NCBI GenBank assembly: GCA_051362555.1
Contig: CM120641.1
Span: 16,492,001-16,556,000 of the forward strand
DNA from: Lingula anatina
Taxonomy: Eukaryota > Animalia > Brachiopoda
Reading direction: 5' to 3'
DNA: 64,000 nt
A model generated the notes under the pieces. It was given only the letters and a program-made list of their open reading frames with translations, ran no database searches and had not been told where the DNA came from. Position numbers and translations under genes: made by a program. Below are positions 24,801 to 55,832 of the stretch, piece by piece. The first letter of the stretch is position 1; every line of letters begins with the position of its first letter.

Positions 24801-27800
24801 TTTTTATTTGTGTTAAACTATTAATAGCAGGAATGTTCATATTTAGCATCATGATTTACCATGCATTTTGCTTTTCTCTTGTAATTTCCAACTGCATTAA
24901 AACTTTTTTGATGCACATGCAATTGATTGTAAAAAGGGCTGAATGGAATTTTTTTCCTAGATATTTACCTGTATTTAACTTTTTTCTAAATGTGATACTA
25001 CACAACTAAATTGAAAATCCATTTGGAAAGACTTGGATTGTAAACTCATTGCCTATATTCAGGTGTACCAGCTCCAGGAAAAACATGAACTGCTGAAGTC
25101 TGACTTGACAGGGAAAGTGACTGCAGAGGCAGAGTCCAGGTACAGTATTAATGTGACAACACAGAAATTCATTATATACAAGCAATGGAGGTGTGTGAGG
25201 AAAAAAATACGTTTAGAGTCTAGTGTTGGTTTTTATGGAGAAAATTGGAATGAAGAATTATTAACACTGACATTAAGACGAAAACAGTGGAATTAATTTT
25301 TCAAAGTATGTCAACATTATGGAGAAAACTGGTAGAATTTTTTTCTTGAGAAAAAGAAAATAGGTATGGCATTATGAAATTGAAAATATTTGCTGTCATT
25401 ACGTATTTCAGGAAGCGAGATGTTGAAAACCTTAGGCGTGACCTGTCCAGGCTAGTGGCTGCCCCAGGTAAAGGTCTGGCTGGAGACAAGACTGCCACCA
25501 AGAGTGACTTTGATGCAGTGAGTACTCACTTTTGTAATAGTTCATTAAATATTACTTATGGCCTGAATTAAAGGAATGGAAAATATGAAAAAATGATTTT
25601 ATGATATAGAGTTGAGGTCTGTAGATTGATGTTACTGTATGACCACAGAAATTGATCACAGAATTAAGATCTTGAGATATTAGTATTAGTATGCAGTTGA
25701 ACTTCTTTAGTAAGAGAAACATGGATGTTGCATTTATTTGAATGTTTTTTAAAGTACAAGCTGAGAGAGGATATTGATGAGGTTTGTGGACTGTGATCAT
25801 TGTTCACTTTATTTTCATTTTATTAATTGTTGTACAATATACTTTTGTTCTATACTATTTGATAATTATGAATGTAACCTGTTAATAGTGATTTTTTTTT
25901 TATTATTATTTACCATTATTATTATTTTTTCATCTTTTGTTCTTTTTGTTTGTAACAGCCTCTATAAGTGTGTATACTCAATGCTTTACCTGGAAATAAA
26001 TTTACCTGCTAAGATCATCTAGTTTATCAGAATGACGATTGCTTTTATGCTCTGTCTTACTTCATATATTTTATGGTTTGCCTGGTGTAGTGTTGACTTG
26101 ATTCTCATTATCATTACCTTTCTTGAGGTTTTTGTTTTTAAAAGGACTTTGTTGAATTATTGAGACACATTAAAAATAAAATATATTGGAACTAATGCAC
26201 AATTGTAAAAAATCTTAATTTAACCACTCTCACTTTCATGTACACAAATATTCAGTTAATCAAATCCTGGTATAAAAAGAAATATTTTGACCAGATAAAT
26301 TTATATGAACTGAAATATTTCTGAACTATCATTTCTCACCGTTTGTTCCCACAGTGCCAGGAGAGTCTTCACAAGCTGGCAGAGTCAGTTCAGACCATTA
26401 AGACAGTCCTTGGCATGAAGATAGCCACAGAGTCTAAACTGGTATGTTGATTTACAATCCATCTGAGGACAAAGTTATTTAGGATGAAGGTGAAATTGTA
26501 CATTTTACTTTTATCAAAGATGTATGGGAAGAATAGAAATCTATTAACTGCATATGACTTATCATCCATTTATTTGTATATTAATATATGTCATCAGATT
26601 TATTATTATTATAAAAGGAATTTATTGGACAGGTACTATTCTCTTTTATGTATCATTTGATTTTTGACTCAATTTCAGATGTGATGGATTGATATGTTGT
26701 TAAACGTTGGCATGTTCTTAGCCATTTTTGCAGAGATATTTGAAATTTAACTTGTTTTTATTTACATACATTTTATGAAGTGTGTGATTTACATATGTTT
26801 TATTAAGTACGACAATAAGTTGTTCAAATAGACATTTTCAGATTAAAAGTAATGTTGACAACTTATATAAACTATGTTTCAATTTTAGATATTTTATTAC
26901 TATGTACCATTTTGTTATAACTTTACCACCCTAGAGAGAAACAAGCATAGGTTCTATGGAAAGAGAAATCGATCATCTCAAAGCACAAGTGTACAGATGG
27001 TCTTTGCAAGAAACGCTGAAAGATTCTCCTCAGCCCCACATAGATAGGGTTGAGACACCCCCAGATTGGAATGAGCCATTATTCATCCCACCACCCCCTG
27101 CAAAGGACAGCAGGGAGGGAACTCCTGAGCCCAAACATCAAAATTCTGCTCCACAAAGTCCTGTCCCTCCCTCAAGAGAGCAACCCAAGTCTGTGAGTCA
27201 CACACCCATTCAAAGCAGACAGCACACGCCCCTGCAGCCCACACCACCTCCACCAAAATCTGCAAGTCATGCTGCGACACCTAAACCACCACTAGGTGAT
27301 GCAGGTTCCCAAGCTGCCCCCTCTCCAAAGCCAGCAGAGTCTGTAGCTCCTGAAGAGCCAGAAAAGGATGATGATACTGATGATAATGATGGCAGCAAAA
27401 GTGAAACCAAACCTGATGACGAAAATCAAAACAAAACAGATGGGTCTAATGAAGATAAAACTGATGGTGTAAAAGGTGAAAGTGACCCAGAGGACAAAGA
27501 TAAAAAGGATGAGGATAAAGATAAAGATGAGGATAATGATGAAAATGATAAAGATGAAGGCAAGGATGAGAATGAACCCAGTAAGGACCCAGACTCTGGC
27601 CCAGATGATGCCAGTGGCAAAGATGATAGCAACTTGGATAAAGACAAGAAGGAAGGAGATGATCCACCACTTCAACAGGGAGAAGAAAATAAGCCAGAGG
27701 AACCACCCACTAAGGATGGTGGTGGTGGTGGTAGTCGCCCAGGCTCTGGGCAGGGGCCTGCAGAGGGTGGTGATAATAACAACCCAAGTGGTAACAATAA

Positions 27801-30595
27801 TGCTGGTGGAGGAGACCATAATAAAGCCCAGGAGGATGGGTTTTAGAACTATTATCGTAGGAACTCTGTATAAAGAAGGTGAATAATGCACAGCATGGGC
27901 CCAGTGTTTGAACTGCACAGCCATTCCAGTAGATATTGTTTCTCCACTGCATGGCCAACAGTGTTATATACAGTGTTCCTCACAGAGTGTGTGATGATAA
28001 CTCAGTAACAAATAGATACGTAGCATGATGATGAATTTTACTCCTAGCAACATACTGCACTAGTAGTGCTAGAGACCTTTATAGTTATGGACACTTGACC
28101 CTGTTAGTGTGGCACAGATGACAACTGAAGGACAGCACATCATACCTCACAATTCTCTTGGTTTTACCTTGGAATTATTTGCTGTGCACTAAAACTAATG
28201 TTAGTTTTTTTTTCTAGTTTCTTTTAGGGCAGTTCACACATTGCAGATCAACTATTCTATTTTCAGTGAAGTCACATTAAATTTTACATTTGCAATACTA
28301 ACCCACTGAAGAGTGTTATTTTATCTTTACCAGCACTTGGCAGCTTTAGTCAGTGTGATTATGTTACCATTGTATGATAATATTCACGAATAGTGTGAAA
28401 GCATAATATTCTAAATTACCAGAAGTCGGACAACTGCTGCTTGTTGAACTGCGGATTTTCTGCTAGTTGTTTACATAATGCTACCAAGGAAGAAGGTTAC
28501 AGTTTTGGATCTCCTCATGCTAACTTAAAACAGTATCAACCAAAGATTTGATAAATTGAAAAAAAAAAAGAGAGAAAACATGCAAAGTCTGACTTGTCAC
28601 ATCATCTGAAGCAATTCAACAAAATGGCTTTGTGTGCTGCCTCTGGTAATTTTTGCCCTTTTGCGAAACACTAACATTAATATAGAACTAATACTAACAC
28701 TTGGTTTTTAGAGAGTGGAAGAAGTGAAAAACTTACAAGATGAACTTAACCGACTGCGTGGTTTGGTAGACCCTCTATTAACATCTGGCTCTGAGCCCAA
28801 AGTGTTCGTTAAACCTACGGGGGCTAGTAAAGAGGAGGCGGAAAGCCAGGCCTCATCTGTCAACCGCTGGGGCGTGTATTCTGCGTACAAGTGAGTGATT
28901 CTGTTTTCTTGCTGATAGAATAATTATTTTTTATGATTATGTATGGTGCACATGTTTTTTTTTAATCAGAAAAGTTCACAAACCTTTCACGATGACACAT
29001 GTAAGATATTTTTTTATTATCTTGTAATGTTTACAATTGAAAAAAAAAGTTCTGATGACTTTTGCTGTTTTGATTGAAGGAAACTAAGATGTGTCTTTTG
29101 GACATATTTTATAAGACATTTATTTAAGAGTAAAAATGGTCATATGAACTGTAAAAAAACAGTAATTCTTTAAAGTTATGTGATGTCAGGCAGGCATATT
29201 TAATGAAAATTTCTTTTAAAAAATGTGTGATGCCAGGCAGAAATATTTAATGAAAGTTTCTATAAAAGCTCTCAGCAAATAAAAATGATTTTGATAATCT
29301 CTGTGCCAATGTGCAACTTAACATACAGTGAATGTTTAGCCAAACACAAACATTCCTCTAATGATAGAAACAGTGGGGTTACTCATGACGGATCTAACTG
29401 ATTTGTTCTTCAATATTGGTATTTTGTCAGAATTAATTGATATTGGCAAATGTTAAACTGGGGCATGCTAATCCAATTGTATACTGCAGGTTTTTGTACT
29501 TTAGAGACATTAAAATGTGCTTACGTCATAGACATTGCACAAATTGAAAAGTGGCAATCACAAATGTAAGAAAAATGTTTTTAGATCCTTTTGTTATCTG
29601 CTAAAAAACAAGCAACTATTGGCAACTTTTAACTTAATTGATTTATACAATAAAGACTTGTACTAATTCTTAATTTTCAAGAACCTTTGTGAGAAATATT
29701 TTTAAGTTTGGCATTGAAATATGGTTTATAAAATTCACGTAATACATGTAGCTAAAAAAAGAAGGGGCTGTTATTGCTGATGGTTGTTTTGGGTGTTGAA
29801 ATTTAGGATCATCTTCAAGCAAATGGACCATTTGAACATAAACCATTGTGTGTCAGCTCTCTTCATCACCATACACACCACTTATTTTATGGTGATCTAC
29901 TAACTTATTTATTTCTCACCAAAAACTTTCTTTAACCTTTTTGTTAATTTTTGAATATGTAAGTTATATGTATGTTCATCATTATTGTTTTTGATTATTC
30001 ATTTATGTTGTACATTAATCTTTTTTTTTTAATTTTTTGTTGTTTTATTCTAATTTAAGACTTTTGTGAATTCCACCTGGTTTTATTTTATAGTTATATT
30101 GCTGTATTTGTTTATTTTTGTATTATCTCATGTGATGTCATTATGTGTCTTACTTTCTCTCTTTCTTTCCTGTGTACTCCTGATGTGTCTAGGTGGATGC
30201 AGTGGAAAACCACTCTGTTATATGGCAGGTGGAAAAGAGCATCAGACAGGGACTTATCCAAACCCTTGCCCACAGAAAACAATCCACAACCACAACAAGG
30301 CAAAGAGGGTAGTGAAAATGAGAACAATAACAAAGGAGACCAGTCCCCTCCCTCCTTGTTTAAAGCTCCGTTTGAGGAAGATGATAATAATTCAAGTAGC
30401 CAGAAAGAGCCTGGCACCAATAAAGAGGGTGAACAAGATGGTTCTGCCTCACAACAAAAGACTGACACGTCCCCAGCAGATAGTAGTAATAGTCAGGGTG
30501 TTGACAACACTGGGGCTGATAAGACAGGAAGCAATAATGATAAGACACAGCAGAGTCAACAAGACCCTGCCAAAGACCCAGACCCCCCTTGGTAG
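9864..30595 (+). CDS. CCDC154: CCDC154-like long coiled-coil protein; exons 9864-9919, 11674-12141, 12641-12833, 15813-15991, 16355-16580, 16882-17010, 17950-18074, 18269-18395, 18971-19033, 20037-20102, 20444-20647, 21345-21455, 21718-21816, 22174-22290, 22616-22666, 23295-23435, 24483-24602, 25063-25139, 25412-25517, 26355-26441, 28712-28890, 30193-30595
   Basis: Phase-consistent GT-AG exons encode a heptad-rich E/K/Q/R protein. The C-terminal segment KIATESKL-RVEEV...EPKVFVK...VNRWGVYSAYKWMQWK resembles the C-terminus of vertebrate CCDC154 as I recall it (RVFIK...NCWGVYQAVRWLRWK). Confidence 0.8.
13842..15328. mobile_element. Non-autonomous piggyBac-type element (~1.49 kb) in a CCDC154-like intron
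   Basis: TTAA target duplications at 13838-13841 and 15329-15332. The TIRs are CCCCATAGAGCCTGG and CCCGGCGCTATGGGG (13/15 match). A palindromic subterminal repeat AACCGC(G/A)TAT(A/G)TGCGGTTCCCGGC occurs twice. There is no transposase ORF. Confidence 0.85.
14510..14792. repeat. ~62-bp minisatellite (about 4.5 copies) inside the piggyBac element
   Basis: AAGCAGGAAAAGACAT recurs four times at ~62-64 bp spacing. Confidence 0.85.
26935..27846 (+). CDS. Alternative terminal exon A of the CCDC154-like gene (Pro-rich, then Asp/Glu/Lys-rich, then Gly/Asn-rich disordered tail)
   Basis: Acceptor CCCTAG|AGAGAA is phase 0 after exon 26355-26441. The open frame of ~303 codons begins RETSIGSMEREIDHLK, parallel to RVEEVKNLQDELNRLR of exon 28712. 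Confidence 0.8.
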   Translation, partial: RETSIGSMEREIDHLKAQVYRWSLQETLKDSPQPHIDRVETPPDWNEPLFIPPPPAKDSREGTPEPKHQNSAPQSPVPPSREQPKSVSHTPIQSRQHTPLQPTPPPPKSASHAATPKPPLGDAGSQAAPSPKPAESVAPEEPEKDDDTDDNDGSKSETKPDDENQNKTDGSNEDKTDGVKGESDPEDKDKKDEDKDKDEDNDENDKDEGKDENEPSKDPDSGPDDASGKDDSNLDKDKKEGDDPPLQQGEENKPEEPPTKDGGGGGSRPGSGQGPAEGGDNNNPSGNNNAGGGDHNKAQEDGF

Positions 30596-33077
30596 CAAAA
30601 TCAATTGATTTCATCTGACTAAGTCCACAAACTTGACTTCCATTTCAAATTGTTTCATGTGTGACACGTATCCTAAAGTAACATGCCATGTTTTGTTCTA
30701 ATTGAGACCATGCAGTGAGCTTCCCAAGCGCTAGAAAGTATTGGTGTTATTAAAAGCGCTATGCCCTGTATTTATAACAAAATTGCTTGTGCATAACAAG
30801 TAAGACATTGATATTGCCGTGGTACAGCTTGTCTTATTTATATACTGTATCTGAGTATCTTTGACACTGAAGTCTGTCAAGCTGTGTACATATCAGGCTG
30901 AAAGTGCTGTTAACATATAGTATGTGTACTTACACATAGTGGAGATAATAATGGATTGGGATATGCCAGTCACAACTATGACATTCCTTATTATTTTTAT
31001 CTTTTTTTTCATGTGCCATGGAGATAAACCAAAGAAACAAAATGCACTATTTGAATAATTGACCTTTGACATTTCCTTGTTAATTTAGTTTTTTTTTTTT
31101 TTTTTTTTTACTGAAAAAATAATTACTGCTTCTATAAGTAGAGTAATGTCAATGAACAGAACTAAACTGTTATCATAAACTTAACTTTTGATAAAGTTGT
31201 TTATGGTTGAGAAATCCTTCCAACAATAGACTGTGATGAATTGAAATGGTATTTTTGTCACCATTTAAAAAGTAAGAAATATTACTAATTTGTATATTTG
31301 TAAATATTTGATTCGAAAACCCCATTGGTTTTTGATATGTGGTGCTTTTAGAATTTTGATATCCAGAATGTAATGTTTTTATTTAATTTTTTCTCTATTG
31401 CATTGTGTATGTAAAATTGTATTATTTTTATTCTTTAGTATAAACTCTAGTGATTCCCTTTAGTGAATATAATTTTTATGAAATATAATGAACTTTTATT
31501 TCATTATTCACATTGTTTACATGTATTTCCGTCCATCTATTTTTCTATGCTAATCGTTTTCTAAATTGTGTCAACTGCATTTTGTTGCTTATTTCTTGTC
31601 ATCATTTTTGTTTTGTTTAAAGCTCTTATTCGCTGAATAAACTTTCTCTTATAGTCTCTATTTATTGTTTTGTTTGTATGTGATCATATAGTTGTTTAAA
31701 TTTTCTACACTAGATCAAACAATGAAAATTCTTTAAAATAATATTCAACAAGAGAATACATTCGGATGATTTTTTAAAAATAATTATTGACAAAATTAAA
31801 AATTTAGATTTTCCAAAATTGGTATCATAACGTAAAGGGGATGAGGGATAAAACGGGGATCACACAGTAGATTCCTATCTTGGAAGGAGACTGCGATGTA
31901 TTTTGTTTGGGCAGAATCGAATCCCATGATTAATGTAGGAAATTACTTTAGGTACACTTTGGATTTGGATGAATGGGGAAGTATCAAAAACGTCAAAATA
32001 TATCGCAGAAAGAGCATGCAATATAATTTGTTTGGTCGGAATGGGATACCATAATAAATATAGGAAATTGATGTACATTGCTTTGGATGAATGGGGAAGT
32101 ACCGAAAACGTCTAAATCTTTTAATGGATCATTTTGCACCAAGCACTCACCCCATTGAGACCATCTCAGTGGCAAATTAACTTTAATAGGGACTTTCAAA
32201 ATACCAATCAGATCCGAATATTTTGGTCATTTAAATTACCTACAATTTATATTTTGTTGTAAAATAAACCTGACTGGGAGATGTTGTTTTATAAAATATT
32301 GTGGTAAAAATGCTAATAAAAATATTTATTCATAGAGGGTAATCTGTTAAAGGGTAGCTACTCTTACCCAGTTTGAGTAAAAAATTGAAATTATATTTAT
32401 TAAATGCTTTATGATTTAAAACGAATTTGATATAGTTGAAATGATCTGAACCACAGAAGACAATATCAGATCATGAAAAATGTTGGTTTTCAATGTAGAG
32501 TTCAAGGTGCCAAAGTATTTTGCTTTAAGTGTTGATTTTAAAGTTAAAATCGCAACTTTTAAATAAAAATCAATATTTATTCGCACCATCTTAATTATCA
32601 AGTAAGTACTCTGTACAAAATCTAGGCACTCTTTTGCTCATATCCATAAACCGAATTTCTCGACAAGGGAAAATCACTTTCACTTCCCGTTTAAAATGTT
32701 AGCGCTGGAGGAGTTATTTAGACAATATAGCTCCGAATTACCCTCACATAAGAAATAGGTATTGAATCATGCAAGGTTGTGATAGAAACAGCAAGTCATG
32801 CCATTTACAAAAAGCAATATTTTTATAGGAACAAGTGTGACAACATAGAGGATAGGAAAATACCTTATCTTCATACGTGAAGATAAGTTATATTTGCTCT
32901 CGTTCAACCGTCAAAATTAGTGCTAGGTTTGCAAAAGTGATATACATATGTAATATAGATAGATAGATACATCATCTTAGATAGATAGATAGAATTACCG
33001 TTGTAGATACATTTGAGGCAGATGAATTCATCAAAAATAAACCTTAATGTTACAAATATAATTTTTATTTAACATAG

Positions 33078-34620
33078 GTGGAACAAAATCAAAAACAAGA
33101 TGAAAGGCAAGAAAAAGGCGAGCAAGAAGGAGGCCCGCTCACCTTCGCCGTCAGAGAGCACTACTGTGCCAGTAGATGTTGCGGACGTGGCAGCAGCGGG
33201 TATCGCTGAAGCCGGAGCAAGACGACAAGCCCCGCCCTCAGATGATGAAACTGTATCAGCACCACCCAAAAAGAAAAACAACAAAAAAGCGGAAAATGAG
33301 TCTGAACCAGAAACTGAAGTAACTGAGCCAAAAAAGAACAAGAAAAAGGCAAAAGAACCACCACCAGAAGATTCAGAAGAAGAGACAACTGCCCCAACCA
33401 AAAATAAATCCGATACAAAACCGCCTCCAAAGAAAAAACAACCTCCAGCCGAGTCAGAAGACGAATCAGAAGCCCCACCTCCGAAGAAAAAACAGCCACC
33501 ACCTGATTCAGAAGATGAAGATGACGAATCAGAAGCTCCACCCCCTAAAAAGAAACAACCACCTCCCGAATCAGATGACGAAACAGAAGCACCACCACCA
33601 AAGAAAAAAGGACAAAAGCCTCCACCCGATTCAGAAGACGATGACGAGACAGAAGCGCCTCCTCCTAAGAAGAGCCAAAAACCACCACCCGATTCGGAGG
33701 ACGACGAGTCAGAAGCACCACCGCCAAAGAAAAAACAGCCACCACCCGATTCAGAAGACGATGACGAGACAGAAGCGCCTCCTCCTAAGAAGAAGAGTCA
33801 AAAACCACCACCCGATTCAGAAGATGACGAATCAGAAGCTCCACCCCCTAAAAAGAAACAACCACCTCCCGACTCAGATGACGAAACAGAAGCCCCGCCC
33901 CCAAAGAAAAAAGGGCAAAAACCTCCACCAGATTCAGAAGACGACGACGAAACAGAGGTCCCTCCTCCAAAGAAGAATCAAAAACCACCGCCTGATTCAG
34001 AAGATGACGAGTCAGAAGCACCACCTCCGAAGAAGAAACAACCGCCTCCGGAAGATTCCGAAGAGGATTCAGAAGACGAAGCCCCTCCTCCAAAAAAACA
34101 ACCGGATAATAAAAAGAAACCTCCACCTCCGGCGGATGATGATGAAACTGAATCGGAGGATGAACCCCCTCCACCCAAAAAACAACCGGATAAAAAGAAA
34201 CCTCCACCTCCGGCAGATGATGACGAAACTGAATCGGAGGATGAACCCCCTCCACCTAAAAAACAACCGGACAATAAAAAGAAACCCCCACCTCCGGCGG
34301 ATGATGATGATGAAACTGAATCGGAGGATGAACCCCCTCCACCCAAAAAACAACCAGATAAAAAGAAACCTCCTCCTCCGGCAGATGATGACGAAACTGA
34401 ATCGGAGGATGAACCTCCTCCACCTAAAAAACAACCGGATAAAAAGAAACCCCCACCTCCGGCGGATGACGACGAAACTGAATCGGAAGATGAACCCCCT
34501 CCCCCAAAGAGTAAAGGTAAACCGCCTCCTAAGAAACCCCCGCCGCCTGATGATGATGATGATGACAGTGAAGATGACGATGATCCTCCACCTAGGAAAC
34601 CACCTGCAAAGAGGCGATGA
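33078..34620 (+). CDS. Pro/Lys/acidic tandem-repeat ORF (PPPKKKQPPPDSEDDESEA-type units); probable third alternative terminal exon of the CCDC154-like gene, or a separate gene starting at ATG 33100
   Basis: Stop-free 506-aa ORF whose repeat units differ at synonymous positions. The acceptor ACATAG|G TGG AAC at 33078 is in frame and has the same phase and first Trp codon as exon 30193 (AG|G TGG ATG). Confidence 0.75.
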
Positions 34621-35080: not shown

Positions 35081-38000
35081 CTATAAGACAAACAATACAT
35101 CAAACTCACGCCACACTGGCGGTGGTCCAGTTTCATTACAGTGGGTTGACACACGTACCCAAAGAACATGCTGAGCCGTGTCGTAAGAAAACGCGCACTT
35201 CGGATCTTTATCTACATCTGTATTAACGAGCATGTCCCAGTTTTTTACATGAACAAAGGTATCTGTACCTTCACCGGTTACCATTGCCGACTGAGCATTA
35301 ACTGCTATTTGTAATATCATTAAACGCCCTACTGTGTCTGTAATGTGCACACGTGCACTTACTCTGGTTTTGTTGAAAGGATCACTGGTTGGAACCATCG
35401 AGACCAAAGACTGGTCCCACAGTTCTCCACTGGCCGCATACGTCGAGTTTGGCCACACCCACCAGTGTAGGGGGTTGATACTGTTTGGCGGGGATGTCAA
35501 TGATACTGCGTGGTTTTCTAGTGTCATCACAGACGGATCCAATGTTGGAATAGCAGATCCTAAATATAAAATCGTACAAAGTATAACAGCATGATTAAGC
35601 GCAATACATTCAAAAGAATGGAAATGACCTTACAGGATTCACCAATGTATCTGTACTGTCCAGTATATGTTTGAATAAGTTAAAAGAGGATTAGGTCTTT
35701 TTCTGCTGTTATTCAAACAACTGTTCTGTGCAGTTAAATGCGTTTAAGATCTTGGTTCTTACTAGCATACAGTAGGAATATGCAAGTGGGTTTCACATCT
35801 GTTAGAAAACATAAGGAAACAAAATTAAACTCAATAACTACAGAAAACCATACCTGCTTTAACGAAAAGAGGTATTGTTTCCAAGGGAGCGCTCACTAAC
35901 TTGGTTTGACCACAATCTAGGAATGGCCCTGTACCGATACGGAAACGTCCATTTGTTGCATTGTCATATACTGCATAATTAAAATCTATCCACTCAGTCT
36001 TAGACATCCCTATAGGCGGTTCTCTTGGAAGATAAACGATTTGCGAAATGGCTCGTTCTTTCAGAACGGGGGCCACAAGAAAAGCGTCACCAAACATAAA
36101 CTGTTCATCATGACTGATGGCAACTGGATCATTCGGAAAACTGAGAATGTGGTGCCTCATGATTGGTATGCCACCATCTTGAACAAAGTGTGCCTCTTTG
36201 TAGATATAGGGGAAAAGAGCCATTCTAAGTTTACTCTGCTTTCTCCAGGCAAATTCTCCCTCGGGCCAATCGAAGATTTGAGTTTTAGGTTTTCCAGAGA
36301 GTGAACTCCCCCCTTGCTGGGAGCGCATTAGACCAGAGAACGTTCCCACCTGTGTCCACCTTATCCAGAGCTCCATGCTTGGGGGATCTATCCAGACAAA
36401 GCCTCCAATGTCTGAGCCAATGTAGGGTATGCCTGATAGGCTCCCACTCAACATGGCGTGCACCTGGGCAGGTAGACCTGAGTCTTGGGACCAGTCACAC
36501 ATTGGGTCTCCAGTCCAGTGGGCCCAGGTTGCGGCACCAGAACCAAGGTAACCTGAACGAAAAAATGGTGTATACGGCGGTGCGTAGTAACCTGGTGGCA
36601 AAGCACGAAAGTTTGACTCATTTGATAAGCGGCTGAGGATTGTTTTGACAGCAGTCTGGTAAAGGACTGGGTACAGATTGTGCATTTCTCTTCCTGTCAT
36701 GCCATTGCTAAAACTACATTCTGGATCAACATTTTCTCCATAGTCTACCATAAATCCCACAAACCCTAAATTTAGAGCCACCTGTAACTGTTTTCCGAAC
36801 CAGTCGACAGCCCCAGGTGCTGTGAAATCCAACAGCCCAACTTTTAGAACACGTGTAGTCTTTGTCTTAAAGGTAAAGGTGTACGTATTGTTCCTAAATT
36901 TAACTAAATAGTTGTTAGCAACTGCTTCGTTGTATAATGGACTGTAGTCAGTGACCAACATACTATTGTAGTAAGCCAGGGCATAGATGCCAAGATCACG
37001 AAGAGCTTTGTTGGTAGCAAGAATTTCACTTTCATGTCCTCGTTGTTCCCCAAGAGGAAAGAACCGGATTTCGTCGTATTCGATTGTAAACGGGATGTCG
37101 CGCAATCTTAGGATCTCTGCCGCTCTTATCGTCCTGTTTGGTCCAGATATACGCAGTGCATCAGCAGCTGTTAACCACGGGCCAAACTGAAAGGGCGGCG
37201 GAACAGGTGCCCGCCCTGCAAAATAAGAGTGGATGGACAGAATATCGCTGGGTCTGCCTATATATATTGTAAGGTCAAAGACCGTATTTTCAACATTGAT
37301 GAGGTAATCATTTCTGTGGGTCTCGCACATGTCCCAAGTTGATCTGAACGTAGTATTGAGGTACATGCCATATCCGTAAGCTGATATGAAAAACGGCATG
37401 GGAGCATATGTTTCTGTTGGATTGAGCGTGGGTAGGCGCTCTTTTGGAGCAACACGAAGACTCCAGCCCCCGTCCTCTGCCCATGAGTACAGCGATTTTC
37501 CTCTTTGGTTCACAGCATTATAACGCACACCAAAACCGTAGAAACCCTCGTTTTTATCCCGGGCTTGAAACCCCAGATCTATGCGAAGTTGGCCGGTAAG
37601 TTCGCACGTAGACATGAACGTTTCCTCCAAATTTTGCTTTGGATTCGGTATGAATTCCAAAATAAGTTGTCCAGCTTTGTCAACAGCGCCTACACACAAC
37701 TGACATTGTACTGTCCTGGTGCTGTTCTTTTGACAGAATTTCACCTGTTCACATATGTCCTCTGCTGTTCGATTTTTCAGCAGTAAGTCGTAAACGATAT
37801 CTCCAGCTGCTTTTGCGTCGTCAAGGCATGCTGGGTTCCTTGGTTCTGGAACTATCCGAGAACCATCTTTTTCGAAGAGTTCCACTTTCAGACCAATTTG
37901 AGATAGAGTGAAGTTACCAACTGTGACATGGAATATGTAGCCCTTGATTGAATTGGAGCTGATTTTCATTGTAACTTGGGTTTTGTCCTGTGACAATGTC

Positions 38001-38706
38001 CAAGACAAAAGTTCCTGGGCGACAAACCTTCCTATTTCTTGGGTCAGTCGCCACGAATATCCATTATATATCCGAATATCAATGCCCGTCCAAGTGGTCA
38101 CTCCTAAAACTCCCCAATGCTGATCCACACTTGTCAGTATTCTTTGTGAATTGTTATCCAGCGTCATTTGCCATGTGTGTATGTTGAATACCAATTTCAT
38201 AGGCCCTCCTGTGATAACAATTTGGTCATCATTCTTGCTACACGACAGAGGCTGGTAAGGACGGCCGTAACTTTGACCGCCAAAGGATAATAAGAGAATA
38301 AAAATCATCTGAAAATGAATAAGGAGAGAAAATCCATGAAATGATGTTTACTTCAGATGGAAAAAAATATTTATTTAGAATCTAGAAACCTGATGAGTGT
38401 AAGGAGTTATTATAATCCCCTGGATTGATTTTTGAACTTAGTCAGAAAAAGTCTAATAAATATGCCGATTTGAGAATAAAAAAATATACGTGAGACTGGC
38501 AGTAGTTGCAACCTTCGTAATTTTGTTGTGAAAAGAATTAATGGTAAAATCTCTAATCCCCCCCCCTCCCACTCACACACACCAACGCCACCACCACCGC
38601 TACCGCCACCACCCCTGGGCAACCCTAAAACCTTAATAGCCGTTATCATATTAGGGTTACTCTGAATCCTTACCAGTTCTACAGCGGTCGCCATTGCTTT
38701 TGCCAT
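35081..38706 (-). CDS. Secreted glycoside hydrolase family 31, copy 1, with inserted swaposin domain; exons 38706-38674, 38308-35854, 35559-35081
   Basis: GH31 motifs: FYGFGVRYNAVNQRG, YAPMPFFIS, nucleophile GFMVDYGE (Asp at 36743-36745), MHNLYP, FFRSGY, acid/base HWTGD (Asp at 36506-36508), GSDIGGF, ELWIRWTQ, QFMFGDAFLVAPV, IPLFVKAG. The N-terminus MAKAMATAVEL|MIFILLLSFGG is hydrophobic. The first exon is the least certain. Confidence 0.92.
37604..37828 (-). other. Circularly permuted saposin-B (swaposin) domain inside GH31 copy 1
   Basis: CLDDAKAAGDIVYDLLLKNRTAEDICEQVKFC (saposin C-terminal half, SapB_2 pattern) precedes CQLCVGAVDKAGQLILEFIPNPKQNLEETFMSTC (N-terminal half, SapB_1 pattern); six Cys in total. 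Confidence 0.8.
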
Positions 38707-39702
38707 CTTCGCACTGTAGAAGGACAATGAAGGACAATGAAGTGTCTGTAATGTTATTAAGAGACAACTAATTGTGTCGTGGTACAGACTACTTTCTGAC
38801 CTCTGATTTGATGGTATTCTACGCCGTATCTTTGACCTTACACGGAGATGATATTTACACGTTGCATGGCAGTTGTACCTTGGGACTTTCAATGAGGTTG
38901 TATCGCAAGGTAAGTCCGTCGTACATCAGTCTGAACAAAGTGCATTTCGGAAAGAAGGAAAATGAGAATTAGGCAATTACAGCCTCGTGCGTGGACAATT
39001 CAGTCTTATTGTCATCTCTGTTGGACAGTTATATCTAATAAATGGAATACGGTTCATCGACTGTTGCAGTATTTGCCTCTATTGGTTGAGGTGACACAGC
39101 AGATACAGCTTGTGGTATAGATACAATATCGTTATCAGCCACAGGTAAACATACAGATTTGAGGCACGAAGCCCATGTCAGACCTAAATTAAGAAGGGCT
39201 AGAACATACTTTTGTGTTGATTTCAAAACGGAAAACTCTAAAAAATTGAAAGTTCTTTGAAGTCTATATTTAAATTCGAATTTCGTGTTTTAGCAGAATT
39301 AGAAATAGAGCATTATGCATATAGGACTAGGTTATATTCTTTGGTTGTTAAAGGGCTTAATACTTCTGCTAGTGTTAATTTCAGTTGATTAAGGAAATTG
39401 TATTCTATTAGTGACCTGTATGCATATTTATTCTAATTTAGATCTTTAAATGTGAAGTATAGTCTACCACTGCGACAAAAAAGCAAAACATATTTAAATT
39501 ACTGATATTTATTTTCACGTATATTCTCAAACATTATATAGAGATATTGGGTACATACACACTTCTTTGCTGTCAAAAAACATTTCCTCTCTACAATCTA
39601 TAATTTAACATCAAAAACATTATCTCTTTAATCATTATAGAACATTCTGGGAATTATCAAATGTCTTTAAATCTGCCATCACCCACGAGCATTACAAGAT
39701 TT

Positions 39703-42700
39703 TTAGTTTACTAAAGTGTATTTCATACTGAAAGTACGTCCACTCGGTGCATTTGCACCGTACCCGTGGCAAGACGGAGAGCTGCGTACCCATAGCACGC
39801 TTTTCACTGTGTCATAGGTATAAGCACACGCGGGTTCTGATTTTATATCAACAGACACCAAGGCAGTCCAGTTTTTAACTTGCGTGTACCCATTCACCAC
39901 GGCGTTATTAGCCAGTGAATTGGCGATCTGAAATATCATCAGACGGTTTACAGGATCCTCGATATGAACGGTGGCGGTTAAAGTCTTGTTCTGGGGGTTA
40001 GATGTTGGATACATGGAAACTGTGGTGCCGTCCCACGCCTCCCCAGTCGCACCAAAGGTTGCGTTGGGCCACACCCACCAGTGGAAAAGGTCGGACCTGT
40101 CGCTGTAAGACGTTGCTCGAGGGTCTGCTGATTTTCCTAGTGTCCATACGCTTGGGTCGAGGGTTGGGACTGCAGAACCTTCAGGCAGAAACAAAGACAA
40201 TACATTAAACGATGGCATAAAACTTATTTTCAATTTGTATTTTAAGACTGTTTGATATCCTTAAATATTCTTGAGTCCTACAGAAAATGTTGCGTACATT
40301 AAAAGATGAACGGTCTTTAATGACATAACACTTGATATATAATAGATAAAATTTTCACGCCTTTTACGAAGGAAGACAATGTGTCATACCTGCTCTGACA
40401 AATAGTGGAGTCACCTCTAAAGGTGCGTTCACATGTTTGGTCTGGCTACCTTGCAATAAAGGCCCAGCTCCTATACGGAAGCGTCCGTCTGTGGCTTTAT
40501 CGTACTCGGCAGCGTGATTGAAGTCGATCCATTCAGTTTGCGCCGGGGCCATGCTAGTGTCCTGTGGCAGATACACGTCTTGGGAAGTATCCCCTTTTTT
40601 TAGAACCGGTGCCACCAAGAAGGCTGGTCCAAACATGAACTGTTGGTCTTGTTTTACTGCTGTTTGGTCATTTGGAAAACTAATTATATGATGTCTCATT
40701 ATTGGTATCCCAACCCGCCTTGATATATGTGCTTGGGTGTAGATGTATGGGAAAAGCGCCATTCGAAGTTTACACTGTTTCCTCCATGCAAATTCTCCTT
40801 CGGGCCAGTCAAAGATCTGTGACTTCGGTTGCCCAGCCAGAGAGCCCCCGCCATCCTGTGCTCTCATTATCCCGGAAAAAGTACCAACCTGTGACCAGCG
40901 TATCCACAACTCCAAACTAGGTGGGACAATCCACGCATACCCTCCGATGTCGGATCCTATGAATGGAAATCCCGAGAGGCTTCCGCTCAGCATGGCATGC
41001 ACTTGAGCGGGAAGACCAGAGTCCTGGGACCAATCGGACATAGGGTCCCCAGTCCAGTGGGCCCAGCTAACTGCACCCGATCCTGTGTATCCGGATCGGC
41101 AAAAGAAGATATACGGCGGAGCGTAGTCATCCTTGGGATCGGTGTCGATAGAATCGAAGAATGTCTTCACTGCGCTTTCGTACAGTATTGGGTAATTGTT
41201 ATGAATTTGCCTACCCATCAGGCCGTTATTAAAGCTACATTCAGGGTCAATATTTTCCCCATAGTCTGTCATGAAGCCGGAGTAACCCATGTCAATCGAT
41301 TCCTTTAGTTGGTTTCCGTACCATGCTACGGCTCCAGGAGCCGTAAAATCCAACACGGCAGCCTTTAGGACGATAGAACTCACTGTCCGGAAGGCAATTA
41401 TATCTGTCTTTCCGTTGAACTTCACAAAGTATCCCTTCTTTTCGGCATCTTCGAATACAGGATTGTAGTTCGTGACTACTCTTGTGTTGTAGTAGGCAAG
41501 AGGATTGACACCGAGTTTTTTCAAAGCTTTGTTTCTTGACAGAATTGCACTTTCTTGTCCTCTTTGCTGTCCAAGGGGCAAGAATTGTACTTCGTCGTAT
41601 TCGATGCTATGCGGAATGTCCCTTTTCAGTAAGATATTCGCAGCATCGATTGATCTATTTGTGCCATTTATACGGAGAGCATCGGCAGCTGTGATCCAGA
41701 CGCCGAATTCATAGGGAGGGGGTATGAGAGACCGACCCGTGGAATGAGTGTAAGCACGAACAACGGACGCTGCATCACCAATGTAAACGACGAGATCCAG
41801 CAAAGTGTCTTCAACTTCTACTAAATACCCCTCTTTATGTGTTTTGCACATGTCCCAGTTTGAGCGAAGAGAGGTATTCATGTATATGCCATATCCTGAG
41901 GAGGATACAAAGTAAGGGGATGGTGAATAGGTCTGTGTCGGATTCATATCAGGTAAACGATTTTTTGGAAAGATTGTAAACCCCCAGCCCCCGCCTTCAG
42001 CCCATGAGTACACATATTGTCCTCTTTGGTTTACAGCGTTGTATCGGACACCGAACCCGTAATACCCCTCGTTTTCCTTTGCTAAAAACCCAATGCTCGT
42101 GCGCAGTTGGCCAGACAACGTGCATATTGACATAAATGTTTCTTCTATGTTTTGCTTCGGATATGGAATAAAATCGATGATCAGTTTGCCAGCTTTATCG
42201 AGAACTTCCATGCAAATGTTGCAAATAGTAGCAGTGGGATTACCATGTGTGCAAAAATGTACTTTCTCGCAAATTTCTTTCGCGGTTAAATTCTGGATCA
42301 GCAATCCGTAGACGACATCGCCCACGGCTTTCATGCTATTTAGGCATAAGGGATTGTCAGGTTCTGGCACAACTCCAGAACCACTCTTATCGAACAGCTC
42401 CGCCTTTAACATCACCTGATTCTCTGTCACATTACCTACGACAAATCCAATGGTGTGCCCCTCAGATGAATTTGTCCCTAGTCTTAAAAACGCTTGAGTC
42501 TTGTCCTGGGATAGATTCCAAGATATAAGACTGTTCACTACCATTCGATCTATCTGGTGCATGAAGCGCCACGAATACCCATTATAAATATGGGGTTCCA
42601 TTCCTAACCACTTTGACACCCCCAGTGTACCCCACTGGTCAGGCACACTTAGGAGCACGGTCCTGGTGACACCTTGTGTAGAGAACTCAATAGTAAGCTG

Positions 42701-43110
42701 CCATGTTTCTTTGCTTAATTTCACTGTTAGATGCCCACCGGAGATGACCATGTCATTGTTTTGAAGGCTGCATGACAATATTTCGTATTTGCCATTAACG
42801 CTATTGCTTGATGCTATGCTTAGGGCTATTAACACTGCGTGGCAGGCAATGGCGACCTGAAATGAACGAATGAGACTAACCACTATAAAAGCATGAATGA
42901 TATTAATCACTTTTATAGCAATATTGAAATGTAATAACTTTTAAAATTTTGGATCATTAAACCATATTAACCATTTTGTAAAATATAGTGGAATTATGTA
43001 ACTTTGATAATATGTTAAGATTATAAGATTTAATTTAATAAGAAATATTAAAAAAGGTAACAAATATACTATAGACTAAAAACACGTACCCAAAATTTAG
43101 TTAACGCCAT
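39703..43110 (-). CDS. Secreted glycoside hydrolase family 31, copy 2, with inserted swaposin domain; exons 43110-43090, 42856-40390, 40178-39703
   Basis: Same motifs as copy 1 (GFMTDYGE, HWTGDPMSDWSQDSGL, GSDIGGY, QFMFGPAFLVAPV, PLFVRAG) and the same intron positions. Signal peptide MALTKFW|VAIACHAVLIALSIASS. A TATA-like element lies at ~43171-43180. Confidence 0.93.
42122..42346 (-). other. Circularly permuted saposin-B (swaposin) domain inside GH31 copy 2
   Basis: CLNSMKAVGDVVYGLLIQNLTAKEICEKVHFC-THGNPTATI-CNICMEVLDKAGKLIIDFIPYPKQNIEETFMSIC; all six Cys are conserved at the same spacing as in copy 1. Confidence 0.8.
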
Positions 43111-52024: not shown

Positions 52025-54896
52025 GATAAATGAATAAATAAAGTAAATAAATAAAATAAAAAAGTAAAAGAGACAGGTATATGTAGAGGAAATGTGAATT
52101 ATATATTTAGTGAAACAATTTTAAACGATCCAGAAGCTTTGTATAAAAAAATATAAATCGTTTGTTGATGATGTTATGCTGTTTCCTCACTGAAATTTCG
52201 AGTTTCCTTTAATTTGCATTGTATAATAAGCCACAAATTATGTGCTGCTAGTTTTGTGGATATTAATGTATGGAAAAGTAACGACAAAATCATTTCATTA
52301 CGAAGTATTTAAGCTTACATGTATAATGCATTCTGCTGATCTCACTGGAATACATGTACATGTGCAGTGGAAAGTGAAATGCGCAAGGATGCCATTACAC
52401 ATTACGTTGTGTTAATATATTTTTGCTTTTATGTTTATATGAATTAAAAAAGGCTTCGTACCTTTAAGCTCAGGTCAACTTATGTCCAGCGTGTAAGCAC
52501 AACACCTGAATTTTTCTAATCCGTATAAATGCATTGTAGAAGCATAAACAACATAATTCATGCAAGTACATACATTGTTTGAAAGATATTTTTAAACTTT
52601 GTACAATGTTATGATGAAGAATATAATTCTGCGAAACATTTTTTATCACTTTCAATAAGGGTATTTTGCAATTTTTTGTGCATTTTTTCATTTATCTTGT
52701 TTTCGTAATGATGAATCCTTTTTCAATCGCGTTCACACCTACGAAAAAATGCAGATTTTCTTTATTAAAGTAATTTAGTTTTATAGCCTTTTTACACGTA
52801 TATTTTCGTTTGAACAATGATTATTGTTTACGTTGATCTCCACATTCTCTCCAGGTTTAAGTCTGTGGGCAGGATACGAAAATCTTGGCCCTGGTCGAGT
52901 AGTACAAATTAAACAAAGCTGCTTTCTTCAGCAAATGTCAGGGGAAATTACATAGAAACAGAATCTTATGTAGTAAAAGAAAGATAATTAGATTGAAAAA
53001 CATTATTTGGATTTTGATGGTACTTGCATGAAATATATAACATCGGAAATTACTGTGTGTGTTTTATTGATATAATGAAACCAAAAGGCGGATATGGTAT
53101 TTATGATAATAACAAAAGGGGTTTGCATTGATGTCACAGGCACAGTCCCAATCCAAGCATATTCTAAATCCACCAATCCCAATTTGGCATAATGCATTTA
53201 TTGTTAAAAGTTCATTTGTTAGTAAGGCCTGACTGCGATTAAACTTGATCAAAGAAAGCAGATGGAATGGAATAGTCTATTTTAACTACTAGCAAATGAA
53301 TGTCGTTTTGTATATACCAAAGTATACCATTACATACGACACCAACACAAACTGGCCTCTAACCTGTGAATTAATCTTTAACCTGTAAAACCTGTAACCT
53401 GTAGTTACTTGCACCTTACTTATTAACTTCTTTAAGCCTGTAATTTGAAGTGGTTGCTATTGTCAACATGTAAGTGTAGTCTTTTGCATATTCGAAATAT
53501 TTGATATTTTGAATTCGAATTTTGATTAAAAAATACGAAATCATTATGCAAGGTTTCCAAGCACTAAACATTATCTCTAGAGAGCAATAATAGGGAACCT
53601 TGAATTTATATAGCGGAGAAATTATGATTTATCAAATATATGCAATATCGTATTTGGTGGAGCGTATTTCTTTTAGAGAATAGCCAAATTTTAACGCATA
53701 ATAATATTTTGTCAGGAGAAAAACTTTAACGTTCGTATCTATTAGATAAAATTATATTGCCATTATATTTTCTATTAAACATTTATATTGCAATGGGAAC
53801 ACTAGTTGTGATAGTTGGAGTATAGGGATAGAAAAAACTAATTCTGACGTTAGGAACTTACAGGTTTGAAATTGAAGATTTTCATCATCTCAAAGATGAA
53901 ATGTCCAAACAATAGCTCACAATACCAAGTCTTCACTGGAATTTTTTAACAGAACTATCGGCATTAATTTTTTCGGCATTAATTTGCTTTTGATGCTGAT
54001 AAACTTTTTTGGGCAATTAATTAAATACCAGAGTTTTGAAGAATCTTGTTCAAGTTTATATCTGACAGCTGTTGGTAAACAGTGATATAAATGACATTTA
54101 TTTCCCACCAGAAGTGGGACGAAAGAGGTGGGGATGTAAGGGAGCGTATGGGATCTGCTATCTTAGCAATACACGCACAGTTATACACGCGAAAATCAGT
54201 AGCTGGTTCTAATTAACTGAATCCAAAGCACGACAAACTATATGCTCGGTCAAACAATCGAGAATACAAAGACTGCGCACCATTTATTAACACACATTTG
54301 AAATGCCAAAGTCCAACGTTCATTCACCACCCAAACCCATTTCCTGAACTTTGAGGGTTTGAGTCCAATTTTTCTTCCTTATAAATGAGATGCCAAGCGG
54401 CGTAGACATGCCTAGTAACAAGGACTAAACACGTGGTTGGGTGATGATAAGTGTAATTAAATGAGCGGTTTGGGGTTCGAGTATTATACCGACAAAATTT
54501 GAACAAAACGAAAAATGCGTTGTAGTATAAAAACGTAGTTGAATTTTCATGCTATTTTAAAGTCTAACTTTCTTTAATACTATCTTTTTATTACTATTAC
54601 TGTTAGCATATAGGATACATGACATGTTAAACCACTAATTTATAAAAACATGCCTACCATTTAAAGTTCTGCAAATAGCATAACAACGCGGAAAAGTATG
54701 TTGCCACTTCTTGTCAGTAATGAGATTTTTTTAATCTTTTTAAATTCTAGGTCAAGGCTTTTTTGCAGTTGACATCTTAAGACTTTTGTTTGTGCTTAAG
54801 CCAAGAGACATGGGTTGTCCTCGTTGATCAAGAGACAACTTTTGATAAATTGCGGATTAGTTCAGGGGGAGATATTACAACTTATCTGAGAAAAGT

Positions 54897-55832
54897 ATGC
54901 ACAGTAATGACATGTTGACAATGACAGAACAAACAGCTCTTCATCGAGTAGGAACCATCTTTGGGCATCCGGGCCCTCAGGATATCTCAATTCATCCTAA
55001 CCTCAAAGATGCGGTCGTGTCTTCCACCACTATGTCGTCTGCTAATCTGTCAGCTGCTAGAGGTAGCGATTTCGATGAAAGCTTTGACGAAGAAGTAGAC
55101 GAAGAGTTTACAGATGAAGAAGAAGAAACATTTTCAGATGAAGATCTGGAACGCGCATTGAATGCAACTGAACAAAAGAACAATGACGCTGCACAAAAGC
55201 TTTTGAATTTTGCTGAGATGGTGAATAAGGATATCCAAAAATTCTTTGGACAAAAGAAAGACGTAGAGGATGCTTGCGATATTTACCAAGACAAATGGAC
55301 ATCCGGGAAATCCGGCAGAGAGCTTTACTACGCAGATTTACTCAAAATAGCACATGGGTACGATTCCGAAGATAACCCCAAGCCTTCCAAAAAATCAAAA
55401 CGTTCTTCATCAAATGACTTCGTTGAACTTCAGTCGTCCAAAAGTTCCGAGCAGGAATTCACTGGTAAAATGGATAAAAAAATTGGTATGGGACCTCTGA
55501 ACGAGCTTTTTGAGTACGGATTACGGAATTTCCTTACGGATAAAAATGTTCTAAATTCTCATGAAAAGCTAAAACGCATTAAATTTGACGTCAAAAAATT
55601 TGAACACGTGGTACCAATGAATGATCGCCAGTTGCCAGAATCATTTTGGAAAGAACCGGGTTCAGTGCCTAAAAATGATAATAAAACTGGAAATGGGTTG
55701 TCAAACGGCCTTCTACCGGGCAGCAAATTACCAGATTTTGGTGATCTGATTGACAGTTGGATGGGGGTAGAAGATAGGGAATGTGAGGCTGAAAAGTCAG
55801 AAAGAGACGAGCAAGAGCCAGTTATAGGATAA
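54897..55832 (+). CDS. PERCC1: PERCC1-like protein (proline and glutamate rich with coiled coil 1), single coding exon
   Basis: An acidic tract is followed by the family blocks QKLLNFAEMVNKDIQKFFG, CDIY, SGRELYYADLLKIA, MGPLNELFEYGL, VVPMNDRQLPESFWKEP and PDFGDLIDSW. An acceptor TTCTAG at 54750 suggests a 5' UTR intron. Confidence 0.85.
   Translation: MHSNDMLTMTEQTALHRVGTIFGHPGPQDISIHPNLKDAVVSSTTMSSANLSAARGSDFDESFDEEVDEEFTDEEEETFSDEDLERALNATEQKNNDAAQKLLNFAEMVNKDIQKFFGQKKDVEDACDIYQDKWTSGKSGRELYYADLLKIAHGYDSEDNPKPSKKSKRSSSNDFVELQSSKSSEQEFTGKMDKKIGMGPLNELFEYGLRNFLTDKNVLNSHEKLKRIKFDVKKFEHVVPMNDRQLPESFWKEPGSVPKNDNKTGNGLSNGLLPGSKLPDFGDLIDSWMGVEDRECEAEKSERDEQEPVIG

Follow-up and report, generated by a model that had tools for sequence, protein, structure and literature searches.

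The first textbook example of circular permutation is provided by saposins and swaposins, the latter having the two halves of the saposin fold in swapped order. To our knowledge, the known saposin-dependent glycosidases need a separate activator, and enzymes with an integral saposin hydrolyse phosphodiesters or esters. Saposin B presents its glycolipid to alpha-galactosidase A (10.1101/2024.04.04.584535), and the activity of acid sphingomyelinase requires an open saposin domain that is packed on the catalytic domain (PMC4961792). The swaposin of plant aspartic proteases, the plant-specific insert (PSI), is described in a passage of PMC3320104 as ‘exclusively found in plants’. In the potato PSI, disulfides join C6-C99, C31-C71 and C37-C68, which corresponds to a cysteine spacing of 25, 6, 31, 3 and 28 residues (PMC5717070). 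Here, we describe two tandem genes of the brachiopod Lingula anatina that encode glycosidases of family GH31 with a swapped saposin in the N-terminal domain, a feature that is conserved in three lineages. The genes lie in a stretch of 64,000 nucleotides (assembly GCA_051362555.1, contig CM120641.1, positions 16,492,001 to 16,556,000), which is referred to below as the window.

GH31, the swaposin and the idea of a built-in saposin were all known beforehand; what we did not find in print is their combination, or a swaposin in an animal enzyme. No description of the GH31 plus swaposin architecture was found in the literature, although the 2023 GH31 subfamily classification may already number the clade or list the architecture in its supplements. 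This agrees with a preliminary description of the locus, made from the sequence, whose author knew of no characterised GH31 enzyme with such an insert; none was found in the literature on GH31 and saposin, judged by titles and the openings of abstracts, or on swaposins, and no paper connected saposins with Owenia fusiformis. Judged by title, the swaposin literature mostly concerns plant proteases or permutation methods, with none on a glycosidase. The main text of the Lingula genome paper contains none of the terms ‘saposin’, ‘glycosid’ and ‘glucosidase’ (PMC4595640), and in the excerpted text of a 2026 circular-permutation survey swaposins are cited only as a known example (PMC13552848). The precomputed Pfam list of the RefSeq protein that corresponds to one of the two genes (XP_013381955.1) is without a saposin domain, and this may be why the architecture was missed.

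A six-cysteine insert in two tandem GH31 genes

Two long open reading frames (ORFs) on the minus strand of the window are the middle exons of the two genes. For each gene an open three-exon model with GT-AG introns was obtained, the introns being located at matching places (988 and 987 residues for genes 1 and 2, respectively). The features of both genes are as follows.

38674..38706, minus strand: gene 1 exon 1, with the start codon and the first 11 residues of the signal region; GT donor; N-terminus matches XP_013381955.1
35854..38308, minus strand: gene 1 exon 2, with the N-terminal beta-sandwich and the insert, the GH31 barrel and the proximal C-terminal domain (Pfam PF13802, PF01055, PF21365)
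35081..35559, minus strand: gene 1 exon 3, with the distal C-terminal domain and the stop
37604..37828, minus strand: gene 1 swapped-saposin insert, residues 172-246 of 988; cysteine spacing 25,6,10,3,30
36743..36745, minus strand: gene 1 nucleophile Asp533, aligned to the Asp mutated in 5f7u and 6jr8
36506..36508, minus strand: gene 1 acid/base Asp612, aligned to the Asp mutated in 5aee and 5ohs
43090..43110, minus strand: gene 2 exon 1, with the start codon (predicted); GT donor, one of two donor choices
40390..42856, minus strand: gene 2 exon 2, domains as in gene 1
39703..40178, minus strand: gene 2 exon 3, with the distal C-terminal domain and the stop; 52% identity to gene 1 in this part
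42122..42346, minus strand: gene 2 swapped-saposin insert; cysteine spacing as in gene 1, 55% identity to the gene 1 insert
41264..41266, minus strand: gene 2 nucleophile Asp538
41045..41047, minus strand: gene 2 acid/base Asp611

In both genes the insert comprises 75 residues with cysteines at positions 1, 26, 32, 42, 45 and 75, and it is located about 20 residues upstream of an FYGFG motif. Both inserts lie exactly where the preliminary description had put them (minus strand, 37604-37828 and 42122-42346). The cysteine pattern, which was defined after the insert had been seen, did not appear in any of 20,000 shuffled versions of each Lingula protein, and it appeared once among 30,000 shuffles made from 150 relatives.

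Beyond Lingula, the insert was found at the same site in a protein of Owenia fusiformis (CAH1786813.1) and in a 292-residue fragment from ENA, which brings the number of carriers to four. The cysteine spacing is 24,6,35,3,30 in Owenia and 25,6,8,3,30 in the ENA fragment, and length differences are confined to the segment that joins the halves, as would be expected of a linker (8, 10, 10 and 35 residues across the four carriers). The four carriers all retain the six cysteines, along with a heptad-like hydrophobic pattern. The second half is better conserved than the first in 5 of 6 carrier pairs and contains a conserved F-x-P-x-P-x-Q-N motif; an N-x-T sequon is present in the insert of 3 of the 4 carriers, and the net charge of the insert ranges from -3 to +1, that is near neutral or acidic. 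The insertion site corresponds to a short loop that, in the N-terminal domains of solved GH31 structures (8r56, 8t7z), connects two strands. This loop measures 23-38 residues in 24 of 26 insert-less relatives and 62 and 63 residues in the other two, as compared to 112-137 residues in the four carriers. An N-terminal hydrophobic stretch is found in the products of both Lingula genes and in the Owenia protein. The Owenia linker (P0020, residues 194-227), with 35 residues among which Lys and Arg abound, resembles a cationic helix or a processing site.

The insert as a probable swapped saposin

Cysteine spacing, profile matches and predicted fold agree on the same family and, although each score is weak alone, this agreement is persuasive; we therefore regard it as very probable that the insert is a whole swapped saposin. 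The order proposed in the preliminary description, with the C-terminal half of the saposin first, is supported by the SapB_2 half coming first, by the cysteine spacing and by a swapped match to acyloxyacyl hydrolase (5w78). When the two Lingula inserts were scanned alone, Pfam SapB_2 matched their first halves with 24.4 and 26.7 bits (cut-off 21), whereas the scores in the whole ORFs, 16.8 and 18.4 bits, were under this cut-off. The expected succession of SapB_2 and SapB_1 was seen for its first member, on both Lingula inserts, and nowhere for SapB_1 on the second half, although the CxxC and the distance to the third cysteine of this half agree with a saposin N-terminal half. A profile built from the four inserts matched 9 of 177,635 PDB sequences at expectation values (E) of up to 10, and all nine are of saposin fold; they include acyloxyacyl hydrolase (the best match, E 0.0016), saposin C, prophytepsin, granulysin and the potato PSI. 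Acyloxyacyl hydrolase was aligned in swapped order, with profile positions 6-49 on chain positions 69-111 and profile positions 43-63 on chain positions 26-46. The swapped reading scored 15.7 bits with saposin C and 17.9 bits with acyloxyacyl hydrolase, as compared to 11.3 bits for the normal order with saposin C. With a two-row profile, the sole match in the PDB was prophytepsin (E 0.66); a single insert gave one unrelated match (E 0.39), and a search of the ESM Atlas with the insert alone gave no usable match. The second half of the Owenia insert weakly matched positions 2-39 of ARMET_N (E 0.08-0.16), which is a saposin-like N-terminal half.

An AlphaFold model of the insert, computed from two rows, consists of four helices, with a predicted local distance difference test (pLDDT) value of 69.5 and a predicted template modelling score (pTM) of 0.47. 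The plant swaposin 3rfi was ranked first by Foldseek (E 0.58, probability 0.87, template modelling score 0.45). It was also ranked first by VIA-align, both among 205 realigned chains and among 48,161 chains in a wide search, where it reached a Z of 6.5 (next 5.2), a value within the range that VIA-align calls common for helical bundles, at a root-mean-square deviation (rmsd) of 5.8 over 78 aligned residues; normal-order saposins reached Z values of 3.1-3.7. The four-helix saposin fold is a prediction, and the first rank of the plant swaposin was obtained at weak scores (Z 6.5, rmsd 5.8). The helix order is probably 3-4-1-2 with a variable linker between the halves, which is the arrangement of a swaposin; a weaker normal-order match to saposin C exists as well. 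Three disulfides are predicted, of which the one between the first and last cysteines would close the base of the insert. Such a clamp had been proposed in the preliminary description and finds its counterpart in the C6-C99 disulfide of the potato PSI. A normal-order saposin likewise has its ends tied by disulfides, and the clamp therefore does not explain the capture of the swapped form.

Distribution of the insert and of the surrounding GH31 group

Relatives were collected by a search of 1.84 billion representatives, and 20 of 149 were looked up by name. The relatives at 35-48% identity include eukaryotes and had been missed by word-based searches, which gave only bacterial relatives at 24-30% identity or the gene itself. 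Named members are from Owenia, Haliotis, Branchiostoma, Rotaria, Pigoraptor, Phalansterium, Gefionella, Pharyngomonas, Pycnococcus and the bacterium Ca. Lernaella. The carrier clade sits inside an uncharacterised GH31 group that is patchily spread over the eukaryotes and is far wider than the insert.

With the insert columns removed, the carriers formed one clade in IQ-TREE, with support values in three runs of 98 (bootstrap; 186 columns, 30 rows), 100 (18 rows) and 100/100 (mixture model). FastTree set the ENA fragment, which fills 23% of the columns, apart from the other carriers with a support of 0.116. A single gain of the insert is the simplest reading of these sequences and, if vertically inherited, the insert would predate the split between brachiopods and annelids, which is Cambrian. 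The insert is not special to the Lingula genome: it is common to an annelid and a third carrier, and it is therefore old as well as conserved. No further carriers were found in 80 metagenome loci or in viral contigs, and two further scans gave no loci, these collections being mostly prokaryotic or viral.

Two proteins of this wider set have unusual architectures. P0040 (4269 residues, JGI/IMG), a distant relative, combines GH1, GH31 (in two stretches) and GH5 with Glyco_hydro_5_C, a domain typical of endoglycoceramidases; the fusion hints faintly that glycolipids may be handled elsewhere in the wider group. The clade member P0169 (MMETSP) is joined to a cyclic nucleotide phosphodiesterase domain and may be a chimeric transcript.

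Catalytic residues, selection and substrate pocket

PF01055 and PF21365 matched both genes far over their cut-offs, which places both products in GH31; PF13802 scored 41.7 bits in gene 1 and 26.5 bits in gene 2 (cut-off 27). The nucleophile and the acid/base Asp are kept in both genes, as had been stated before, and they match residues that were mutated in solved GH31 structures (5f7u and 6jr8 for the former, 5aee and 5ohs for the latter). An Atlas model of the RefSeq protein has a pTM of 0.82, and its nearest clusters are bacterial GH31 proteins. The two paralogues are 57% identical, and their synonymous sites are saturated (proportion of synonymous differences, pS, 0.81). The corresponding nonsynonymous proportion (pN) is 0.28 in the insert (pS 0.94), 0.27 in the whole protein and 0.20 in the barrel. 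Since the insert combines this high pS with a pN near the protein average, it is under purifying selection.

The GH31 pair fits none of the characterised subfamilies that were tested. A profile of the group matched 6jr6 (presumably Dex31A), YicI, YihQ and Lmo2446 about equally well (E 1e-82 to 1e-68). For the barrel alone, the nearest solved structure is YihQ (E 8e-21; the best chain that neither bears the name YihQ nor clusters with it reached 1e-14). YihQ cleaves sulfoquinovosyl diacylglycerol (SQDG), and Q/E-R-W-Y are the residues that bind the sulfonate (PMC12780224). The preliminary description had included SQDG among the conceivable substrates, but cleavage by the known sulfoquinovosidase mechanism is not supported by our results: the Q/E-R-W loop of sulfoquinovosidase (8r56) has no counterpart in the Lingula enzymes, in which the Tyr is replaced by Phe in gene 1 and retained in gene 2, and the score of the NCBIfam YihQ model (PRK10426) is 204-230 bits as compared to a cut-off of 553. 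SQDG may nevertheless be a substrate of the Lingula enzymes, since a sulfoquinovosidase without the Q/E-R-W motif has also been described (PMC12780224). The Haliotis (abalone) proteins P0026 and P0170-P0172 have been named ‘sulfoquinovosidase-like’ automatically. For P0026 this name is probably wrong, because the protein has the short loop of the clade without the Q/E-R-W motif.

In glucosidase II, a His binds the O4 of glucose and a Trp is located two residues ahead of the nucleophile (PMC9491548). By sequence alignment only, this His corresponds to Gln675 in gene 1 and to a Gln in gene 2, and Met531 in gene 1 and a Met in gene 2 occupy the position two residues ahead of the nucleophile, in place of the Trp of glucosidase II or the Lys of MYORG. 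Recognition of ordinary alpha-glucosides is doubtful, because the His for glucose O4 is replaced by Gln. A His in a different loop, which is kept in most of the group, is replaced by Arg and Gln in the Lingula pair. At 37030-37080 and 36860-36890 (minus strand), and at the equivalent positions of gene 2, both Lingula enzymes differ from the clade in loops that probably line the pocket: Arg or Gln stands in for the His that precedes F-F-P, and a Y-K-G-A-G loop that is kept in Owenia has been replaced. The specificity may differ between Lingula and Owenia. As a first guess, held with low confidence, the substrate could be an alpha-galactosyl lipid from algal or bacterial food.

A proposed built-in activator and the alternatives

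We propose that the swaposin may serve as a built-in activator that presents a membrane glycolipid to the active site of the enzyme to which it belongs, and we assign a probability of about 0.5 to this reading. The module would open in the lysosome, a food vacuole or the gut lumen, the opened module would bind the lipid chains and pack on the enzyme as in acid sphingomyelinase, and the barrel, by the double-displacement, retaining mechanism typical of GH31, would then release a terminal sugar in alpha linkage.

Several observations weigh against this view. Of 150 listed proteins, 107 extend over the insertion site, and just 3 of them have the six-cysteine pattern, namely the Lingula record, Owenia CAH1786813.1 and the ENA fragment. 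Most of the GH31 group therefore works without the insert, and the substrate of the group need not be a lipid. Bacterial neighbourhoods (30 ORFs, from the first 29 of 80 loci) did not reveal lipid degradation or any other common theme. SapB_2 did not match the Owenia and ENA-fragment inserts when these were scanned alone, SapB_1 matched no second half in the four carriers, and the N-terminal half of acyloxyacyl hydrolase contributed a match of only 2.3 bits. The fold matches are weak, with none in Foldseek at E ≤0.001 and rmsd values of 5.8-6.0, and the Z of 6.5 is one that helical bundles commonly reach. Lastly, a full-length fold from a single sequence had a pLDDT of 31, too low to place the insert relative to the active site, and the activator role itself is inferred.

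The alternative that survives best, though we consider it rather unlikely, is a true swaposin that acts like the PSI. It would sort the enzyme to lysosomes or vacuoles, dock it on membranes or food particles, or be clipped at the linker and disrupt membranes, while catalysis would concern soluble or protein-bound glycans. The insert-less relatives have the same catalytic motifs, which speaks for this explanation, and the 35-residue, Lys/Arg-rich linker of Owenia resembles the long linker of the PSI. However, the linker has just 8-10 residues in 3 of the 4 carriers, and the conserved F-x-P-x-P-x-Q-N motif suggests a fixed packing on a protein surface. In addition, the net charge of -3 to +1 is unlike that of the lytic saposins, which are cationic. 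On the other hand, the potato PSI is acidic too, with a pI of 4.6 (PMC5717070).

It is less likely still that the insert, though of saposin descent, now gives the aglycone site its shape, as a structural lid or as a contact between oligomer subunits, and has no role in lipid handling. GH31 N-terminal domain loops can complete the active site of a neighbour (PMC9061262), and the second half of the insert has drifted past SapB_1, yet 5 of 6 carrier pairs show higher conservation there than in the first half; both points would suit a lid. A purely structural role is harder to reconcile with the retention of the amphipathic pattern and of all six cysteines, and the functions of saposin-like proteins have been described as ‘all involving lipid interactions’ (PMC5717070).

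Very unlikely, finally, is an insert that is not a whole swapped saposin, but either a saposin in normal order whose cysteines have shifted or the C-terminal half of a saposin attached to unrelated helices: the missing SapB_1 match and an alignment of profile positions 19-65 to saposin C chain positions 18-63 in normal order (11.3 bits), which puts the N-x-T sequon of 3 of the 4 carriers on the sequon of saposin C, would fit this idea, but the same alignment leaves two cysteines unmatched and a 27-residue length difference inside the core, would be explained by the internal pseudo-symmetry of saposins, and is outscored by the swapped reading (15.7 and 17.9 bits), which pairs all six cysteines, while the weak match of the Owenia second half to ARMET_N 2-39 (E 0.08-0.16) also speaks against it.

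Returning to the built-in activator, its widest formulation is that of a second natural swaposin family that arose separately from the plant insert, no later than the brachiopod/annelid split, and made a branch of the uncharacterised GH31 group into a self-activating alpha-glycolipid hydrolase with a sugar specificity new to GH31, used by marine suspension and deposit feeders on algal or bacterial membrane glycolipids. We put this forward as a tentative possibility. A conserved swaposin in an animal glycosidase means that the swapped unit is in use outside plant aspartic proteases, and it allows testing whether the permutation from tandem saposin repeats arose more than once. If the proposal is true, a glycosidase with a built-in activator would be a naturally occurring design for cleaving glycolipids in the absence of detergent. 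The group supplies its own control in close relatives with and without the insert, and its pocket lacks the usual residues for glucose and sulfoquinovose.

Gene models and neighbouring features

The search for GT-AG splicing gave four open models for gene 1 and six for gene 2, from which we chose the one equal to RefSeq XP_013381955.1 for gene 1 and its homologous model for gene 2. Gene 1 is 99% identical to this Lingula anatina record, with 7 substitutions in 819 residues, and the window therefore probably represents another haplotype or assembly relative to RefSeq. Gene 2 (39703-43110, minus strand) has no near-identical record in the protein collection and may be unannotated in RefSeq. Seven of nine available RNA runs were mapped. 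A few reads fell on the GH31 exons in four of them (X1, X2, X8 and X9) and none in X4, X5 and X7, and no spliced joints were found in any of the seven; a control exon was almost uncovered as well, so that these data give no verdict on expression. Contamination and lineage-specific bacterial transfer were ruled out by the two matched GT-AG introns, by the eukaryotic relatives and by the GC content at third codon positions, which is 0.43-0.48 in the GH31 genes as compared to 0.32-0.46 in four neighbouring ORFs.

Rfam gave no matches in window positions 30000-56000. Positions 33073-34620 (plus strand), with similar exons at 26935-27846 and 30059-30595, contain long coding repeats rich in Pro, Lys, Asp and Glu with periods of 60, 81 and 123 bases. 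These repeats are tail to tail with GH31 gene 1, some 460 bases separating their end from its stop codon, and they match no Pfam family; they are possibly the end of a coiled-coil gene at 11561-12145. A 323-residue ORF at 54861-55832 (plus strand) contains a TEAD-interacting omega loop (PF15238, E 3.6e-8) and is presumably PERCC1- or FAM181-like. Integrase fragments of a long terminal repeat retrotransposon (rve, Integrase_H2C2, SH3_Tf2-1) are located at 1966-3155 (minus strand).

Comparison with known systems

The closest described system is the PSI (3rfi, 1qdm), with which the Lingula insert shares the swapped halves, six cysteines at matching spacing and the location inside a hydrolase of the secretory route, and which provides its best fold match. 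In the strict sense the insert is no PSI, as its host is a GH31 glycosidase of a brachiopod and an annelid rather than a plant aspartic protease; moreover, its linker is usually short (8-10 residues) and it shares 18-21% identity with 3rfi. Hydrolases with their own saposin domain also include acid sphingomyelinase and acyloxyacyl hydrolase. In these enzymes, however, the domain is N-terminal and in normal order, catalysis is not that of a glycosidase, and the lipid function is proven, whereas it is inferred here. The presentation of a glycolipid head group to a glycosidase that we propose has its models in saposin B with alpha-galactosidase A and in saposin A with galactosylceramidase. The activator of these lysosomal glycosidases is a separate protein, and the enzymes themselves do not belong to GH31.

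Among GH31 enzymes, YihQ (GH31_13) is the best solved match to the barrel alone and has similar nucleophile and acid/base motifs, but the Lingula enzymes are without its Q/E-R-W loop and have Gln in place of the His. MYORG, a GH31 alpha-galactosidase, is likewise a metazoan GH31 enzyme without the glucose-binding His arrangement of alpha-glucosidase II (PMC9491548). It is, however, a distant match (E 1e-11), its Lys461, two residues before the nucleophile, corresponds to Met in the Lingula enzymes, and it has no saposin module.

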